From the sequence record PQ351811: DNA of 64,000 nt; one strand, written 5' to 3'. The stretch is from Shigella phage SSG23. This document shows positions 10,073 to 47,966 of this stretch, piece after piece; positions within the stretch are counted from its first letter, which is position 1, and the number at the start of each line of letters is the position of its first letter. Below the pieces are notes generated by a model, which was not told the origin of the DNA, did not search any database, and saw only the letters and a list, made by a program, of their open reading frames with translations. The translations under genes were made by a program, and so were the position numbers.

Positions 10073-10668
10073 TGGCTCAACTATATTTCTACTATGCATC
10101 TATGAACGCTGGCAAATCAACTTCCCTGCTACAAAGTGCTTATAACTATACCGAACGTGATATGCGAGTATTAATTCTTAAACCAGCGATTGATAATCGT
10201 GATTCAGATAGTGAAGTTGTTTCCCGAATTGGTCTAAGTGCTCCAGCGATCACCTTCACTAAATCGGATGATCTTTTCGATTTGGTTTATCGTGAATCAC
10301 TGGGTAAGCGTAGACCAGATCGCTGGCGTCCTGATGCTGTATTTGTAGATGAAGCCCAATTTATGACTAAAGAACATGTTTTAGGCTTATGTGCACTGGT
10401 TGATGATGCCAATATCCCTGTTTTGTGCTATGGCCTTCGCACTGACTTTAAAGGCAATCTATTTGAGGGATCTGCGGCATTAATGGCATTGGCTGATAAA
10501 CTGGTTGAAATGAAGGGTATTTGTCATTGCGGTAAGAAAGCAACTATGGTCCTTCGCGTAGATAAAGATGGTAATGTTATTCGCGATGGTGCTCAAATAG
10601 AAGTTGGTGCAGAGGATAAATATGTTTCTGTGTGCCGTAAACATTTTATTGACGGAACTACCAACTAA
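10072..10668 (+). CDS. tk: thymidine kinase
   Basis: Walker A ASMNAGKST, DEAQF, C-terminal Zn Cys cluster CHCGKKAT...CRKHF. Confidence 0.9.
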   Translation: MAQLYFYYASMNAGKSTSLLQSAYNYTERDMRVLILKPAIDNRDSDSEVVSRIGLSAPAITFTKSDDLFDLVYRESLGKRRPDRWRPDAVFVDEAQFMTKEHVLGLCALVDDANIPVLCYGLRTDFKGNLFEGSAALMALADKLVEMKGICHCGKKATMVLRVDKDGNVIRDGAQIEVGAEDKYVSVCRKHFIDGTTN

Positions 10669-10695
10669 GAGTTAATCATAAATAAAGCCCCAGAT

Positions 10696-10703
10696 TATAA
10701 ATA
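10696..10703 (+). promoter_or_regulatory. T4-late-type promoter motif TATAAATA
   Basis: Exact TATAAATA 34 nt upstream of rI-like ORF, inside loop of CCCCAGATT/AATCTGGGG inverted repeat. Confidence 0.5.
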
Positions 10704-10736
10704 TAACTGAATATTTTCAATCTGGGGGAATGACTT

Positions 10737-11039
10737 ATGTCATTTATTCGTAAAACTCTAACAGCGGCAATATGCTTGACTGCGGTCGGAAGTGTCAGTG
10801 CTGATCAATATGATCCAACTGGTGACTTTACTGATTATTTCGACGGTGCAATGATAGTATATGTAAACAAAATATCTCCTTCCATTGAAACCAGCCAGAA
10901 ATTTCATGCCCATATTATGAAGATGTATGCTCGTAGTAAATGTATGGATTCTAAGCAGTGTTTTATTATGGGGGAATATGCCGCAAAACAATTTGTTATG
11001 TTGTATAATGTGGAGAATCGAGAACATGAAATTCAGTGA
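10737..11039 (+). CDS. rI: RI-like periplasmic antiholin
   Basis: Signal/anchor sequence; C-terminal Y..S.C.DS.QC...GEYAAKQF resembles remembered T4 RI; adjacent to tk as in T4. Confidence 0.6.
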   Translation: MSFIRKTLTAAICLTAVGSVSADQYDPTGDFTDYFDGAMIVYVNKISPSIETSQKFHAHIMKMYARSKCMDSKQCFIMGEYAAKQFVMLYNVENREHEIQ

Positions 11040-11424
11040 TTTTCGAAAGACGTCCGAAGAGGGGAAAGCTAATAAAGTTGACCGCTTTATCGGTGAATGT
11101 CTGATGAGTGTTACTTATATGCATTCTGCGCATTTTGGGGTGACTGGTCCAGGATCTTATGCAAAACATAAGGCTCTAGAAGAGTTCTATCTTGAAATGC
11201 AAGAATTGGTTGATAATTTCACTGAAACCAATATTGGGATCACTGGTCGTTATCAACCAACGTTGGTCGTCCGCAAGGAGATTAGCGAAATTGCCTATTT
11301 GCAAGAGTTAACGCAAATGGCTAGTGAGATTTATAATGATGTTGATAGCTCGTTACAGAGCGTTTTAGATGATATCAAAGTTCTATGCTTTAAAACAATT
11401 TATAAACTCACTCGACTGGCTTAA
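11026..11424 (+). CDS. hypothetical protein
   Basis: Track ORF 10927..11424, ATG 11026 after GGAGAATC SD. Confidence 0.5.
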   Translation: MKFSDFRKTSEEGKANKVDRFIGECLMSVTYMHSAHFGVTGPGSYAKHKALEEFYLEMQELVDNFTETNIGITGRYQPTLVVRKEISEIAYLQELTQMASEIYNDVDSSLQSVLDDIKVLCFKTIYKLTRLA

Positions 11425-11445
11425 TGTCAGTCACAAGGGGGATAC

Positions 11446-13593
11446 ATGCCAGCAGAAATTAAAAACACTACAATTAACTCTCAAATTTGGCTTCCTCATA
11501 CTTTTGAATGTTCGATTGTTGCCGAGTCGGATGACCCGGAGAAAAGACGAAAAGGATATTTATGGAAAAAGAACGATAAGTTGATCACAATGACCGATGG
11601 TCCGTCTTTTCCGCTAAAGTCTGTTAAAGAGGAAGATAAAACAGGTTGGTCTGTTAATGTTCGTGGTTTTGCTCAAGATGATGAAAATCTTTCTGGCGAA
11701 TCCGTAGATATCGGTACGGAAAACTTCACCTTTGAACTTTTTGATAATCCATATGTGGAACATGTATACCCGCCTACGTCTTTTAATATTGGTGATGAAA
11801 TCAAGGCAAAGATTGTTTTTCGTAGTCATATCCAGCCTAATATTTCGGTTGACCTTTATTATAATGATGGTTTGGTTGATTCCGTTGACGGTGATCTGGG
11901 GTTAGACCATCGTGAATTTAAAATTGCAAAATTCGCGTGGCCTGAATTTTCCGGTACATATAAAATGGAATTGAGTGATGAACATGGTGAGGTTAAGTTT
12001 GTATATCCTTTCTATGCAAATATCACTGAAAATAAGGAAGTATTCAACGTACAAAAATATGCACCTGCCTATTTTACAGTAGAGGATGATGCACCGAATC
12101 AGGCGGAATATACTATTGTCCGATATCGACTAGAGCGCAATGATGGTAGTTTGGTTTATGAGTCTAAAGATAAGACTCTATACGTGACTAAACACGCTCA
12201 ACCGTCCGATGCTGGGGTTTATATTGCTTTTGTTCGTGCATATAAGGTTGTTAATGGACCTGGTGCTGGGACCGAATATGTGGATGGTGAAAAACATCGA
12301 TTCACAGTTAACGTAAAAGAAAACGAATTTTTTAGCCGTGATTTTAGTGCTATTGATTTTCGTTATCCTTCTGGGTCTACTGTAAACCTTGATATGCCAG
12401 TGATGCAAGCCGATAGCTCATGGAATCGTCATTATGGTATGCTTACTAACAACGTTTACTTTACGTGGATGCTTGGCGGTAAGAAACTACAAAGTAAAAA
12501 ATATGGTGATGAAGGATATGACCGAATCACATTATCTGGATTGCAATATGATAACAGCGTTGCGCTTCAATTGTTGGTTGCTCCTGCCAATCCAGCGGGT
12601 GAACAGGTGATTCCTAACGGTCGCCCATTATTTTATGATCGTCGTATGCTTGAGATTTATGATAAAGAGTATGATTATCGTAATATTGAAGTGGGTGAAC
12701 CGATTGTTCTCAAGATCGTAGATCCTGAACCGCCAGCTAGTGATGATCCTGAACAAACGCGAACTTTGGTTATCACCAAAAACGACGTTAAAGTAACGGA
12801 ACTTCCACTAGGTACTAAGGAATATAAGATCACCGACTCTGCGGACCGAGACCATAACGGCATCTGGGCGCATGAATATCGTGATAGTCCGAGTAAAGAT
12901 CCATTTAGTGCACATACTGATTTTGATATTGCTGGTCGTTCGACCTATCATGTTGAAGTAGTGCCGAATATGGAGTTTGACGGTCCTCATCCTGTGCAGG
13001 TGACGGAGGGTGATACCCTGACGCTAGAAGCAACCATGCTAAAACCGCCAGCCTCATATGTTCCGACTTATGAGTTTAGTAAAAACGGTGTTAAAATGGA
13101 AATGGAAGACCCAAGAAGTCCGATTTACCGTAAAGCAAACGTTACGCTAGAGGATGCTGGTGTTTATCGATTTGTTGCATTTGCTGATAAAAACAGCAAC
13201 GATGAACTAGATCCTGGCGAGATTGTCGGGTATACAAAATATGTTCAGGTTGTAGTTAATAAACGTCCTGTGCGACCGGATGAACCTAGACCGGAAGTTA
13301 AAATTGTTACTATGTTTAACGAGTTTAGCAAAGGTCGATTTAGTCCGTGTCCGTATTGGGTAATTGATGAGCTTGTCGAATTGATGGAAGACCCGCATGG
13401 CTGGATGGATAAACTTGAAGATTCTGTCTACTATGACTGGCAAATCACTATCTTTAATGAGTTCCTAAAAGGCAAGGATTTGTATCTTCAAGATTCGTGT
13501 AATGGTTACTGGGCGATTGTCCGCCAGAAGGATATGTCTATTGAAACTGGCTATGGTCGATTCAAACACTACTATACAAATGGACGTGAATAA
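11446..13593 (+). CDS. large Ig-like-domain protein (715 aa)
   Basis: Repeated Ig-like signatures DAGVYIAFVRAY and DAGVYRFVAFA; candidate virion decoration/adhesin-like protein. Confidence 0.65.
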   Translation: MPAEIKNTTINSQIWLPHTFECSIVAESDDPEKRRKGYLWKKNDKLITMTDGPSFPLKSVKEEDKTGWSVNVRGFAQDDENLSGESVDIGTENFTFELFDNPYVEHVYPPTSFNIGDEIKAKIVFRSHIQPNISVDLYYNDGLVDSVDGDLGLDHREFKIAKFAWPEFSGTYKMELSDEHGEVKFVYPFYANITENKEVFNVQKYAPAYFTVEDDAPNQAEYTIVRYRLERNDGSLVYESKDKTLYVTKHAQPSDAGVYIAFVRAYKVVNGPGAGTEYVDGEKHRFTVNVKENEFFSRDFSAIDFRYPSGSTVNLDMPVMQADSSWNRHYGMLTNNVYFTWMLGGKKLQSKKYGDEGYDRITLSGLQYDNSVALQLLVAPANPAGEQVIPNGRPLFYDRRMLEIYDKEYDYRNIEVGEPIVLKIVDPEPPASDDPEQTRTLVITKNDVKVTELPLGTKEYKITDSADRDHNGIWAHEYRDSPSKDPFSAHTDFDIAGRSTYHVEVVPNMEFDGPHPVQVTEGDTLTLEATMLKPPASYVPTYEFSKNGVKMEMEDPRSPIYRKANVTLEDAGVYRFVAFADKNSNDELDPGEIVGYTKYVQVVVNKRPVRPDEPRPEVKIVTMFNEFSKGRFSPCPYWVIDELVELMEDPHGWMDKLEDSVYYDWQITIFNEFLKGKDLYLQDSCNGYWAIVRQKDMSIETGYGRFKHYYTNGRE

Positions 13594-13605
13594 AACATAA
13601 TCAAA

Positions 13606-13636
13606 AGCCATCCGAAAGGGTGGCTTTTTCGTTTTT
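13606..13636 (+). terminator. intrinsic terminator
   Basis: AGCCATCC-GAAA-GGGTGGCT followed by TTTTTCGTTTTT. Confidence 0.65.
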
Positions 13637-13641
13637 AGGTG

Positions 13642-13670
13642 TTGACAACCGGATCGTGGTATAGCATAAT
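13642..13670 (+). promoter_or_regulatory. sigma70-consensus early promoter (PeSL-like cassette)
   Basis: TTGACA-17-CATAAT; leader CACATCGACAACAAAAGGAGAACCAAAATG. Confidence 0.7.
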
Positions 13671-13700
13671 GCACACATCGACAACAAAAGGAGAACCAAA

Positions 13701-13910
13701 ATGATTAATCCCGTAGCCGCAGCACTTGCTTCCGAAGAAACTTTGAAGTATATGGTAGAACACGCAGCAAAGAAGGGAGAAATTGTTACTGCCGATGAGA
13801 TCGTAGAAACCATGCTTCGCGATCCGAAGGGTAACACAGCAAAGTTTTTCGGTGATCATCTTAAGCTGGCTTACAAAACAATTATGGAGACCGTAAAGAA
13901 TGCAAAATGA
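13701..13910 (+). CDS. hypothetical early protein
   Basis: Track ORF after promoter, GGAG SD. Confidence 0.55.
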   Translation: MINPVAAALASEETLKYMVEHAAKKGEIVTADEIVETMLRDPKGNTAKFFGDHLKLAYKTIMETVKNAK

Positions 13911-14238
13911 TGTAATTGAAGTTATTATGAATCAATATCAAAACCGGATTAAATCGGGGCGAATCACCGAAGAAAAGGCGAAACGGATCATCGAAAGATA
14001 CGCCGAAGCAACTAAAGGCGCGCCATCAGCTAACAGAATCATGATTCTTAAATGTCTGGTGCTTTCTGGTGACGATATGCCTATTCATGCAAAGAGTGCA
14101 ACCGATTTTCATAAGACCTATCGCCAGTGTGATGTAATTTTTACTTCTGGCTTAGGTAGTTATGACTCTATTATGTGGAATTTAATGCACCTTGATCCGA
14201 TTATCTGGGATGTACTTTCAGAGGAGGGCTACAATTGA
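13900..14238 (+). CDS. hypothetical protein
   Basis: Track ORF overlapping upstream stop. Confidence 0.5.
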   Translation: MQNDVIEVIMNQYQNRIKSGRITEEKAKRIIERYAEATKGAPSANRIMILKCLVLSGDDMPIHAKSATDFHKTYRQCDVIFTSGLGSYDSIMWNLMHLDPIIWDVLSEEGYN

Positions 14239-15176: not shown

Positions 15177-15193
15177 GTAATATTATCAATCAA

Positions 15194-15216
15194 TGCCCCT
15201 TAATTGGGGCTTTTCT
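15194..15216 (+). terminator. intrinsic terminator
   Basis: GCCCC-TTAATT-GGGGC followed by TTTTCTT. Confidence 0.55.
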
Positions 15217-15230
15217 TGTGAGGAAACTTT

Positions 15231-16010
15231 ATGGCAATTAAAGCAGGTTGGGTCGGATCATCGGCTGTGTCCGAGACTGGTCAACGGTGGATGAGCGCCG
15301 CAATGCAAGCTGTACGCTTAGGCCGTCCGGCGTATATGTCAGCGATGGTCGGACGCTCTAAAGAGATTCATTATAGCATTGGCGCTAGTAACTCTTACAA
15401 TAAAGACACTCTTATTAACTGGATGAAAGCACAAGGATCTACTCCGGTAGTAATTACTATCACAGGTAATATTGTTTCCCAATCTACTGGCGTTCCTTGT
15501 CTTGATTTCCCTAGCTCACTAACAAATGAATATGTAACACTCATTATTAACTCTGGTGTTCATGTCTGGGGGCGTGGTGGTAATGGTGGCAATAACTCCG
15601 CTGGTGGTGCTGGTGGTAATGCAATTAACAACGGTATAGGCACACGCTTGCGCATCACAAATAACGGCGCTATTTGCGGTGGCGGTGGCGGCGGTGGCGG
15701 CGGGTATTATTCTCCTTTTTCACAAATGAAATTGACTTTTGGTGGAGGGGGCGGTCGTCCATTTGGTGCTGCTGGTGGGTCTGCTAATATGGAACAGGGT
15801 GCTACTGCTGGTACTATTTCCGCGCCAGGTAAAGGGTCTGTCAACGGTGTATATAATGGCGGTAACGGTGGTGATGCTGGTGGTGCTGGTGGTAAATGTA
15901 ATATCCGTGGACAGGGGTCGGAATATAATGGCGGAGCGGCTGGTAAGGCTGTTACTGGCAATGCCCCTCGCTGGGATAAAGTAGGCACGATCTACGGTGC
16001 TCGTGTGTAA
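15231..16010 (+). CDS. gp38-like receptor-recognizing adhesin (T2-type, glycine-rich motifs)
   Basis: N-terminus GWVGSSAVSETGQRWMS, NEYVTL, GRGGNGGNNSAGGAGG, poly-Gly GGGGGGGGGYY and further GGNGG blocks as remembered for T2-type gp38. Confidence 0.75.
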   Translation: MAIKAGWVGSSAVSETGQRWMSAAMQAVRLGRPAYMSAMVGRSKEIHYSIGASNSYNKDTLINWMKAQGSTPVVITITGNIVSQSTGVPCLDFPSSLTNEYVTLIINSGVHVWGRGGNGGNNSAGGAGGNAINNGIGTRLRITNNGAICGGGGGGGGGYYSPFSQMKLTFGGGGGRPFGAAGGSANMEQGATAGTISAPGKGSVNGVYNGGNGGDAGGAGGKCNIRGQGSEYNGGAAGKAVTGNAPRWDKVGTIYGARV

Positions 16011-46557: not shown

Positions 46558-47966
46558 TTAAAACTATCTTTTCACAGTTGATTTACAATGGCGCATTCTT
46601 TACGAATGTATGGCCTCACCTTAAAGCGGACTACTTCACCGAAGACGAAGAAAAACTGATTTATAAGCTGATTAAAAAGCACGTAGACGAATATTCTAAT
46701 ATTCCTACGCCAACTGCATTACAGATTGCTTTAGACAAGGAGAGAGGCAATCAGACAACATATGAAGGGGCTAAAACTCTTCTCGATTCGCTGGAGAATA
46801 CACCGGAAGACCTTGATTGGTTAATGAAGGAAACCGAAAAATTTATCCGCGACCGCGCTATGTATAATGCAATGTCACGGGCGCTAGAGATTCAGGCGAA
46901 CGCACAACTACCAAAAGAGAAACAGAATAAGAAATTGCCAAGTGAAGGCGCTATTCCTGAGATCATGCAGGAAGCACTATCCATTACGTTTGATTCTGAT
47001 GTAGGTCATGACTGGTTTAATGACTTTGAAAAACGATTCTTGTTATATCAGACTAAAGCGAATAAGATCCCGTTTAAGCTGTCTATTCTGAATAAAATCA
47101 CGAAAGGCGGGGCAGAGAAAAAGACATTGAATGTTTTACTTGCTGGTGTAAACGTTGGTAAATCGTTGGGATTGTGTTCTCTTGCTGCGGATTATATGGA
47201 ATGTGGTTATAATGTTCTGTATATCTCAATGGAGATGGCAGAGCATGTCGTAGCCAAACGTATTGACGCAAATTTGCTTGACATTACCTTAGATGAATTG
47301 GATGATGGCAATGTTTCCTTTGCTGAATATTCCGCACGCATGAAACGCGTCAAGAATAAGAAAGCTGGAGAACGTCCAATCGGCAAGCTGATGATCAAAC
47401 AGTATCCGACTGGTGGCGCGAACTCCAATCACTTTGAGGCGTTAATGAATGAATTGCGACTCAAGAAACAGTTTAAACCTGATGTTGTGATTGTTGACTA
47501 TCTGGGGATTTGCGCATCGTCTCGCTTGCGTGTATACTCTGAAAATAGTTACACACTAGTTAAGGCTATTGCGGAAGAACTTCGCGGATTTTTTGTTAAG
47601 TGGGATGTTGTTGGTTGGACTGCGGCACAGACTACCCGCGCGGGTTGGGATGCTTCCGACCTTAACATGAGTGATACCGCTGAATCAGCAGGTCTTCCGG
47701 CTACAGCCGATTTTATGTTGGGTGTAATTGAGACCGAAGATCTTGCAAAAATGGGTGTTCAATTACTCAAGCAGATTAAATCTCGTTACGGTGATAAGAA
47801 CTATTATTCACGGTTTAACGTTGGTGTGAAAAAAGGCAATCAGCGTTGGTATGAAGTCCCAAACCAGATCGCAGATCAGGAGAATGCACAAGTTAAACCA
47901 CAAAGCGCACAGCAAGCCGAGAAACGAGAAAAACTCGACGAGCTAGCAAATAACATGACTTTCTAA
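46554..47966 (+). CDS. 41: replicative DNA helicase gp41 (DnaB-like)
   Basis: Walker A GVNVGKS, Walker B VVIVDYLG; 470 aa. Confidence 0.92.
   Translation: MIKTIFSQLIYNGAFFTNVWPHLKADYFTEDEEKLIYKLIKKHVDEYSNIPTPTALQIALDKERGNQTTYEGAKTLLDSLENTPEDLDWLMKETEKFIRDRAMYNAMSRALEIQANAQLPKEKQNKKLPSEGAIPEIMQEALSITFDSDVGHDWFNDFEKRFLLYQTKANKIPFKLSILNKITKGGAEKKTLNVLLAGVNVGKSLGLCSLAADYMECGYNVLYISMEMAEHVVAKRIDANLLDITLDELDDGNVSFAEYSARMKRVKNKKAGERPIGKLMIKQYPTGGANSNHFEALMNELRLKKQFKPDVVIVDYLGICASSRLRVYSENSYTLVKAIAEELRGFFVKWDVVGWTAAQTTRAGWDASDLNMSDTAESAGLPATADFMLGVIETEDLAKMGVQLLKQIKSRYGDKNYYSRFNVGVKKGNQRWYEVPNQIADQENAQVKPQSAQQAEKREKLDELANNMTF

Follow-up and report, generated by a model that had tools for sequence, protein, structure and literature searches.

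What does a phage gain from a large gene of hypothetical function that follows its antiholin gene rI? We address this question for a 715-amino-acid (aa) protein encoded in a stretch of 64,000 nucleotides (nt) from Shigella phage SSG23 (sequence record PQ351811), referred to here in its entirety as the window. The region matches Shigella phage SFHK24 (PQ351812.1) with 100% identity; that phage is a member of Krischvirus and an RB49-like relative of the T-even phages, and window position 11446 corresponds to position 46787 of its record. The gene is labeled as a hypothetical protein in the SFHK24, Brandy, UPWr_E1, G2248, and JK32 records. A first-pass annotation, made from the letters of the sequence alone, had called an open reading frame (ORF) at 11446-13593 and likened its product to the capsid decoration protein Hoc, at about twice the size of T4 Hoc. 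The coordinates, plus strand, ATG start, and TAA stop are all correct, the sizes are 715 and 376 aa, and the likeness to Hoc is stronger than the sequence reading allowed: a homolog of the Hoc capsid-binding domain stands behind six Ig-like domains. The gene probably encodes a long, divergent, Hoc-family capsid decoration fiber.

Domain architecture and the C-terminal foot

The gene, its ribosome-binding site, and the parts of its product as delimited in an AlphaFold2 (AF2) model, with predicted local distance difference test (pLDDT) values where they matter, are as follows.

11435..11441, plus strand: Shine-Dalgarno AAGGGGG, 4 nt 5′ of the ATG, read from the sequence
11446..13593, plus strand: 715-aa Hoc-family gene, ATG start and TAA stop; product of 82 kDa, isoelectric point (pI) 4.87
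11446..11745, plus strand: Ig-like domain 1 (aa 1-100), predicted distal tip; AF2 pLDDT 83-94; most variable, 62% mean pairwise identity
11746..12030, plus strand: Ig-like domain 2 (aa 101-195); AF2 model and Foldseek
12031..12321, plus strand: Ig-like domain 3 (aa 196-292), which holds DAGVYIAFVRAY at aa 255-266; AF2 model
12322..12660, plus strand: Ig-like domain 4 (aa 293-405), with one short helix; AF2 model, lower confidence
12661..12963, plus strand: Ig-like domain 5 (aa 406-506); AF2 model
12964..13263, plus strand: Ig-like domain 6 (aa 507-606), which holds DAGVYRFVAFA at aa 570-580; AF2 model and Pfam
13264..13296, plus strand: basic, Pro-rich linker (aa 607-617); pLDDT below 50
13297..13590, plus strand: C-terminal α/β domain (aa 618-715), Hoc capsid-binding-domain homolog; motifs CPYWVIDEL (aa 635-643) and QDSCNGYW (aa 682-689)

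Using phmmer against PDB sequences, aa 609-689 aligned with residues 283-361 of T4 Hoc. When the last 109 aa were compared by tblastn with 50,697 phage records, about 780 weak matches were returned, and of 60 rows sampled across the ranking almost all fell within a hoc or a capsid-decoration gene, or within this gene bearing another name, for example "PKD domain protein" or "tail protein". The full 715-aa protein matched PHROG 1149 ("Hoc-like head decoration") with an E value of 3e-9, and the last 109 aa alone matched positions 1076-1145 of its 1150 positions (E 1.3e-6). Alignment by hhalign of the family C-terminal alignment with Hoc C-terminal domains gave 96.5% with six Hoc sequences and 96.9% (E 1.6e-10) with 78. 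A hidden Markov model (HMM) built from the 78 Hoc C-terminal domains scored 28-41 bits across 17 of 17 family members, the best of 2000 control shuffles reaching 5.6 bits, and its sole match in a six-frame translation of the window was the 715-aa ORF. Neither Pfam nor NCBIfam matched the C-terminal domain of the 715-aa protein, a null result that is uninformative because T4 Hoc itself matches Ig and PKD families alone and its foot goes unmatched. AF2 was run again on aa 592-715, this time with the alignment enlarged by Hoc homologs, and gave a core of pLDDT 75-86 with the order β-β-helix-helix-helix-β-β-β. The top PDB match of this fragment model in Foldseek was 8t1x_X, which is the C-terminal domain of T4 Hoc on gp23* (probability 1.00, TM score 0.52, root-mean-square deviation 3.4 Å; next match at a probability of 0.08), a fold match that is not fully independent of the sequence homology because the fragment alignment contained Hoc sequences. 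Judged by sequence comparison and modeling, the C-terminal domain of the 715-aa protein is a homolog of the Hoc capsid-binding domain.

The full-length AF2 model, made with 16 homologs in the alignment (mean pLDDT 78.7), consists of six consecutive β-sandwich domains, a low-confidence basic linker, and the C-terminal α/β domain; the wider stretch around the linker, aa 607-634, has a pI of about 10. The first-pass annotation had reported at least two Ig-like signatures in a β-rich context and had named domain and structure prediction as the check. Both signatures, DAGVYIAFVRAY and DAGVYRFVAFA, fall on predicted β strands (E257-268 and E572-580, respectively), the model is almost all-β, and Ig-like folds are present in it; the count of two holds as a minimum and is an underestimate of the six modeled. 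Pfam detects domain 6 alone, as Ig_3 with a below-cut-off E value of 3e-4, which indicates that the Ig-like domains of this protein are very divergent, and domain 1 matched the Ig repeats of giant proteins in a profile search. The best Foldseek matches of the full-length model in the PDB were six-Ig arrays (contactins, MDGA1, and sidekick; E about 1e-17), that is, generic Ig arrays and nothing more specific. Among the viral models of BFVD the top match was a 714-aa protein of 78% identity, evidently an ortholog, and the third was a phage protein of 846 aa, probably identical with the long Hoc paralog taken up below, with further Ig-bearing phage proteins after it. No signal peptide or transmembrane segment was found in the 715-aa protein (maximum 19-residue hydropathy 0.92; N terminus not hydrophobic), and an adhesin that is exported or set in a membrane was rejected on this ground.

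Fokine et al. (2023; PMC10385173) list the Hoc residues that contact gp23* or shape the binding loop, and the T4 Hoc loop E355-S-R-N-G359 between β3 and β4, followed by Tyr, touches all six gp23* subunits (PMC10385173). The counterparts of these residues in the 715-aa protein are given below, T4 Hoc first.

Y293, H295, R300 (motif VHPxPxR) to I620, T622, F627: not kept
W306 to P634: not kept
W309/W310 to Y637/W638: kept, at the start of helix 1
D313 to D641: kept; D313 is the partner of R357
W325 to W653: kept
Y334/Y335 to Y662/Y663: kept
Q354 to Q682: kept
Loop E-S-R-N-G (355-359) to D-S-C-N-G (683-687): mostly kept, with S, N, and G retained and E replaced by D
R357 to C685: not kept
Y360 to Y688: kept

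Y637-W638 and D641 are invariant in a 16-sequence alignment, and "PYW" or "LPYW" variants of the start of helix 1 are also found in many accepted, ordinary Hoc proteins. A 44%-identical homolog (P0016) has the loop D-S-K-N-G, with Lys at the position of T4 R357. An obligatory C635-C685 disulfide was considered and dropped, since position 685 is occupied by Lys in P0016. The canonical Hoc of SFHK24 and the 846-aa paralog of that phage keep all of the compared foot residues. On these alignments the foot of the 715-aa protein is homologous, with part of its capsid-facing surface remodeled.

Several points weigh against reading the protein as a capsid fiber of the Hoc type. With the family sequences alone, AF2 confidence for the C-terminal domain was moderate at best (pLDDT 45-66), and the dependence of the fold match on Hoc sequences was noted above. 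The first β-strand motif of Hoc, V-H-P-x-P-x-R, is absent; its residues Y293, H295, and R300 are highly or well conserved and interact with gp23* (PMC10385173), and the stretch of the 715-aa protein aligned to it is KIVTMFNEFSKGR, where model confidence is low. With this motif, W306, and R357 all replaced, binding may be weaker or to a different surface. The β1 residues are a highly conserved feature of Hoc, not the definition of the family, and their loss makes it less safe to infer identical binding. The gene is not part of the head gene cluster and has no late promoter motif TATAAATA directly 5′ of it. If three proteins compete for a single site on each hexamer, the level to which the 715-aa protein is incorporated comes into question. 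Lastly, in the literature on the five phages that carry the gene and on Hoc in Krischvirus we found no proteomic, structural, or transcript data on the protein, nor any mention of the gene.

The replaced contacts also bear on where a Hoc-derived foot would attach. It could hold a virion fiber at a different place, such as a subset of capsomers, the vertex region, the neck, or the tail, where the protein would form a separate layer without competition from Hoc. Both other Hoc proteins of SFHK24 keep the residues of VHPxPxR, W306, and R357 that are replaced here, the retention of three paralogs in one phage is easier to explain by different sites, and both long paralogs occur in the same five phages. 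We nevertheless regard attachment elsewhere as unlikely: the loop that touches six subunits is largely kept, as DSCNG or DSKNG, together with the aromatic pair and the helix-1 Asp, and the "LPYW" variants of helix 1 belong to ordinary Hoc proteins as well. No other binding site is known for the Hoc foot fold.

Distribution, selection, and gene loss

The family of the 715-aa protein occupies only 15 clusters in the protein database, with 58-97% identity. A profile search of 1.84 billion representatives returned two full-length clusters and one 118-aa fragment, and the remaining matches were generic Ig repeats and one ordinary 369-aa Hoc; because this search adds only one 44%-identity cluster and one fragment, the family is narrow. 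An intact frame of about 715 aa is present in 17 clusters, with divergence down to 44% identity. Mean pairwise identity climbs from 62% in domain 1, the predicted tip, to 85% in the C-terminal domain, the most conserved part, and the ratio of nonsynonymous to synonymous substitution rates (dN/dS) comes to about 0.11 for the gene as a whole and to 0.04-0.09 for the C-terminal domain, with dS above 1. The 715-aa ORF is real, intact, and under purifying selection. The Shine-Dalgarno sequence takes the form AAGGGGG, AAGGAGG, or TAGGGGG in G2248, JK32, and a metagenomic locus (L010), and is degraded in RB49.

Among SFHK24, G2248, and JK32 the gene is 68-82% identical at the nucleotide level and the flanking genes are mostly 87-99% identical. 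The resulting island of divergence, at window positions 11381-13480, is sharply bounded and has saturated synonymous sites (dS above 1), which suggests the pattern typical of surface proteins exchanged as old alleles by recombination. In all inspected loci, those of G2248, JK32, and metagenomic phages at 59% and 44% identity, the gene is found directly after rI and rI.-1. In the 59%-identical metagenomic relative (L010 8246-9214) the downstream genes differ, comprising a DNA methylase, a Dmd-like gene, and others, and the upstream linkage to rI and rI.-1 alone is kept.

The canonical Hoc of SFHK24 is a 408-aa protein encoded at record positions 160744-161970. Between inh and hoc lies a gene for an 846-aa protein (SFHK24 record 158154-160694; L005 8155-10695) that is labeled "hypothetical protein", possesses the canonical foot motifs, and matches PHROG 1149 with an E value of 9e-50; by sequence it is a clear Hoc paralog. 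As this paralog joins the canonical Hoc and the 715-aa gene, SFHK24 has three Hoc-family genes, with about 57 kb of the circular map between hoc and the 715-aa gene. In a survey of krischviruses, 58 records gave any match. Most or all of the 715-aa gene was found in five (SFHK24, Brandy, JK32, UPWr_E1, and G2248), and none but these five matched the 846-aa gene at any length: over the whole query in SFHK24, Brandy, and JK32, over 65% of it in UPWr_E1, and over 22% in G2248. RB49 and Phi1 contain relics, and the other 51 records match short 3′ pieces of both long genes only.

The RB49 and Phi1 relics of the 715-aa gene (RB49, L003 5840-6039; Phi1, L002 5920-6202; corresponding to window 11446-11575 and 13302-13593) consist of its first 93 nt or more, with the ATG changed to ATA and a 1-nt insertion, and of pieces of its 3′ end. 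In Phi1 a deletion has joined codons 31 and 650 at repeated GACCC. RB49 has two junctions, one that joins codons at about 44 and 617 and another between two GGTCGATTC repeats, which occupy codons 630-632 and 704-706; the two phages have different deletion junctions, each with a different microhomology. Phi1 ORF084.1 corresponds to the final 42 codons of the 715-aa gene, and in RB49p168.2 the two ends of the 846-aa gene are fused, the first 32 nt to roughly the last 112 nt. The relics of both long genes in RB49 and Phi1 imply that the long paralogs were ancestral to the genus and were lost in these two phages. The short 3′ pieces in the 51 records fit the same losses, the relics aligned being those of RB49 and Phi1.

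Gene loss on this scale raises the thought that the 715-aa gene might be an insert, decaying or selfish, that does nothing for the phage, given that most sequenced krischviruses grow well without it and that RB49 and Phi1 retain relics only. This is scarcely credible and is already contradicted by the selection analysis: the frame is intact in 17 clusters down to 44% identity with a dN/dS of about 0.11 at dS above 1, the position is always the same, and mobile-element features are lacking.

Neighboring genes and expression signals

Pfam places rI upstream and gp38 downstream of the 715-aa gene, as the first-pass annotation had it. The neighboring genes and signals are the following.

10688..10727, plus strand: predicted RNA hairpin, CCCCAGAUU...AAUCUGGGG, which encloses the late promoter motif and whose 3′ arm covers the rI Shine-Dalgarno
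10696..10703, plus strand: perfect T4-type late promoter motif TATAAATA, 34 nt 5′ of rI and 750 nt 5′ of the 715-aa gene
10737..11039, plus strand: rI (antiholin); Pfam PF24205 Antiholin, E 3.1e-23; same gene order in L010 and L012
11026..11424, plus strand: rI.-1 (DUF5856); Pfam PF19174, E 2.4e-20; contains TATAAACT at 11401-11408
13603..13628, plus strand: strong intrinsic terminator, 11-bp stem and T run, which closes the unit; annotated in G2248 and conserved in RB49, G2248, and JK32
13642..13670, plus strand: near-consensus sigma-70-type early promoter, TTGACA-17-CATAAT, 11 of 12 matches; serves the next gene cluster
15231..16010: gp38 adhesin; Pfam GP38, E 3e-73; 1.6 kb downstream, with glycine-rich motifs and a local rise in GC content to 0.48

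The tk gene is also upstream. A perfect TATAAATA occurs only twice in the 64-kb window, and the copy ahead of rI is conserved in position in G2248, JK32, and RB49 as well as in the distant metagenomic L010; it is likely, to judge from its sequence and position, the late start of a unit composed of rI, rI.-1, and the 715-aa gene. The fold of 10680-10745 that surrounds it has an energy of −24.8 kcal/mol (z −6.35; none of 200 shuffles was as good), and its arms co-vary, being CCCCAGAT/ATCTGGGG in the window versus CCCCCAA/TTGGGGG in L010. The T4 lysozyme and soc genes have a late promoter inside a hairpin, and only the late transcript, which starts within the hairpin, can be translated; by analogy, the rI leader looks like this type of control. 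Between TATAAATA (10696-10703) and 11446 there is no terminator-like site, and a weak one inside the ORF, at 12606-12625, was treated as chance. The 715-aa gene is thus plausibly the last cistron of the rI/rI.-1 unit and transcribed late. The canonical hoc of SFHK24 likewise lacks a TATAAATA directly upstream. A scan of 10500-14000 against Rfam gave no match.

Two features that the first-pass annotation had read into this neighborhood did not survive. It had pointed to an imperfect late-promoter-like TATAAACT at about 11397; the motif is present, 4 nt away at 11401-11408, but its role as a promoter is not upheld. Two of its eight positions depart from TATAAATA, the window has five copies of it versus 3.55 expected (33 of 100 shuffles reach five), and its conservation is explained by its location inside the rI.-1 reading frame (...IYKLTRLA*). 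We rejected TATAAACT as a late promoter on grounds of chance frequency and coding sequence, the TATAAATA ahead of rI being the likelier one. The annotation had also joined the 715-aa gene and the gp38-like gene in one block of virion or adhesion proteins. The terminator at 13603-13628, the early promoter at 13642-13670, and five small ORFs intervene, and G2248 has the 715-aa gene but no gp38 there, the conserved linkage being to rI and rI.-1; a transcription block shared with gp38 was rejected on the terminator and early promoter between the two genes and on G2248. No GP38 domain was found by Pfam in the 715-aa protein, and Pfam GP38 matches the ORF at 15231..16010 only. Upstream of gp38, at 15185-15210, there is a terminator-like hairpin (GCCCCTTAATTGGGGCTTTTCTT) and no TATAAATA.

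In the GenBank annotation of SFHK24 (CDS0077 and CDS0078; window 10737-11424) rI is missing and an opposite-strand 51-aa ORF is called instead, and rI.-1 is over-extended to an upstream ATG at 10927 and labeled "starvation-inducible transcriptional regulator".

The setting of the gene bears on whether its product enters the virion at all. A nonstructural intracellular protein of the early or rI-linked program, for example a scaffold, decoy, or antidefense factor that reuses Ig- and Hoc-like modules, would suit the early-strand position among early genes after rI and rI.-1, a linkage conserved down to 44% identity, and the lack of a late promoter immediately upstream. We hold this to be quite improbable. 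The Hoc C-terminal domain has no known role besides capsid attachment (PMC10385173); a conserved foot with a variable tip, an acidic pI, and an island of divergence with saturated dS form the pattern of an exposed fiber; and rI has a late function, with a late promoter in its leader that would also transcribe the 715-aa gene.

Proposed function and relation to known decoration proteins

We infer virion presence, binding site, expression timing, and ligand for the 715-aa protein on the model of Hoc. As a Hoc-family decoration fiber, the protein would be made in the cytoplasm, the late source of its transcript likely being the TATAAATA promoter ahead of rI, to which read-through from early promoters may add. 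The monomer would dock by its conserved C-terminal α/β domain (aa about 618-705) onto the expanded lattice of the major capsid protein, most likely where T4 Hoc docks, at the centers of gp23* hexamers. Recombinant RB49 Hoc binds T4 capsids (PMC10385173), which implies that the docking site is conserved across these phages. The six Ig-like domains would project as a fiber about 30 nm long, a length scaled up from 18 nm, the reported figure for T4 Hoc with its three domains, and the distal, fast-diverging domains may touch glycans or cell surfaces weakly and reversibly. Hoc proteins are acidic, with pI 4-5, and have been proposed to mediate weak adherence and the dispersion of virions (PMC10385173); the acidic charge of the 715-aa protein (pI 4.87) may likewise help virions to stay dispersed. 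The SFHK24 capsid would bear mixed fibers of three lengths, from the 408-aa Hoc, the 715-aa protein, and the 846-aa protein, and the 715-aa gene would be dispensable, as the relics in RB49 and Phi1 and the short 3′ pieces in other krischvirus records suggest.

Published work already covers the domain architecture, Hoc proteins of very great length, and the presence of two Hoc-like proteins in one phage (PMC10385173). What is new is the assignment to Hoc of a hypothetical gene, a third paralog outside the head gene cluster, a remodeled foot, and the deletion relics of RB49 and Phi1. A function is thereby proposed for a large gene annotated as hypothetical in every inspected phage record; some RB49-like phages have three genes of the Hoc family, of which one is not in the head gene cluster, and for two such genes the type phages RB49 and Phi1 are deletion derivatives. 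Hoc is a widely used display platform and is central to ideas on the adherence of phages to mucus. If the foot of the 715-aa protein binds a different site, its altered contacts could make it a second, orthogonal display anchor.

Brandy49, unlike RB49, Cognac49, and Whisky49, is reported to infect strains that produce O antigen, although the O antigen is not its receptor (PMC9569957), by a mechanism that the authors, who discuss gp38 only, term elusive (PMC9569957). Brandy49 carries both long Hoc paralogs, and the coincidence of these genes with infection of O-antigen-shielded hosts is a speculative lead. Near-isogenic phages with one versus three Hoc fibers, Cognac49 and Brandy49, are a ready test system for the effect of extra capsid fibers. 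It is a long shot, but conceivable, that the subclade of SFHK24, Brandy49, JK32, UPWr_E1, and G2248 builds a three-tier coat with the 715-aa protein at a site of its own, in which the long fibers act as ecological or host-range determinants, for example in adsorption to O-antigen-shielded or mucus-embedded hosts.

Known systems resemble the 715-aa protein to different degrees. T5 pb10 has a single Ig-like domain and an unrelated, N-terminal capsid-binding domain. It decorates the capsid as a monomer, with an Ig-like domain, and binds at the center of capsid hexamers (PMC5292684); it had no sequence match to the 715-aa protein in any search, and the likeness is one of analogy only. Ig-bearing phage tail proteins (PHROG 3995, "tail protein") gave a weak profile match to Ig domain 6 only (E 0.0012), whereas the 715-aa protein has no tail-tube, fiber, or baseplate domain and its non-Ig part is the Hoc foot. 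An identity as a tail protein was rejected, as the sole PHROG tail match covers domain 6 and the remainder consists of Ig-like domains and the Hoc foot.

The closest counterparts are the Hoc proteins of T4 and RB49, which share an N-terminal string of Ig-like domains followed by a C-terminal α/β capsid-binding domain, an acidic pI, a cytoplasmic and nonessential character, a variable Ig part with a conserved foot, and the motifs WW/YW-V-x-D-E, G-x-W, Y-Y, and Q-[ED]-S-x-N-G-Y. They differ from the 715-aa protein in having three Ig-like domains rather than six, in 376-408 aa, and in a foot to which that of the 715-aa protein is only about 25% identical; the latter lacks VHPxPxR, W306, and R357 and has a C-terminal extension (...ETGYGRFKHY). 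The hoc gene lies between inh and gene 24.3, whereas the 715-aa gene follows rI.-1 and is additional to the canonical Hoc. The 846-aa paralog of SFHK24 adjoins hoc and has a canonical foot, the 715-aa protein being far more divergent (E 3e-9 versus 9e-50 against PHROG 1149). Published precedents are phages that encode two Hoc-like proteins and Hoc proteins in which the Ig domains number as many as 10 (PMC10385173). Serratia phage Muldoon (1174 and 314 aa) and Enterobacter phage PG7 (two Hoc-like proteins) are similar in having more than one Hoc-foot protein, with differing numbers of Ig domains (PMC10385173), and they have two such paralogs where SFHK24 has three.

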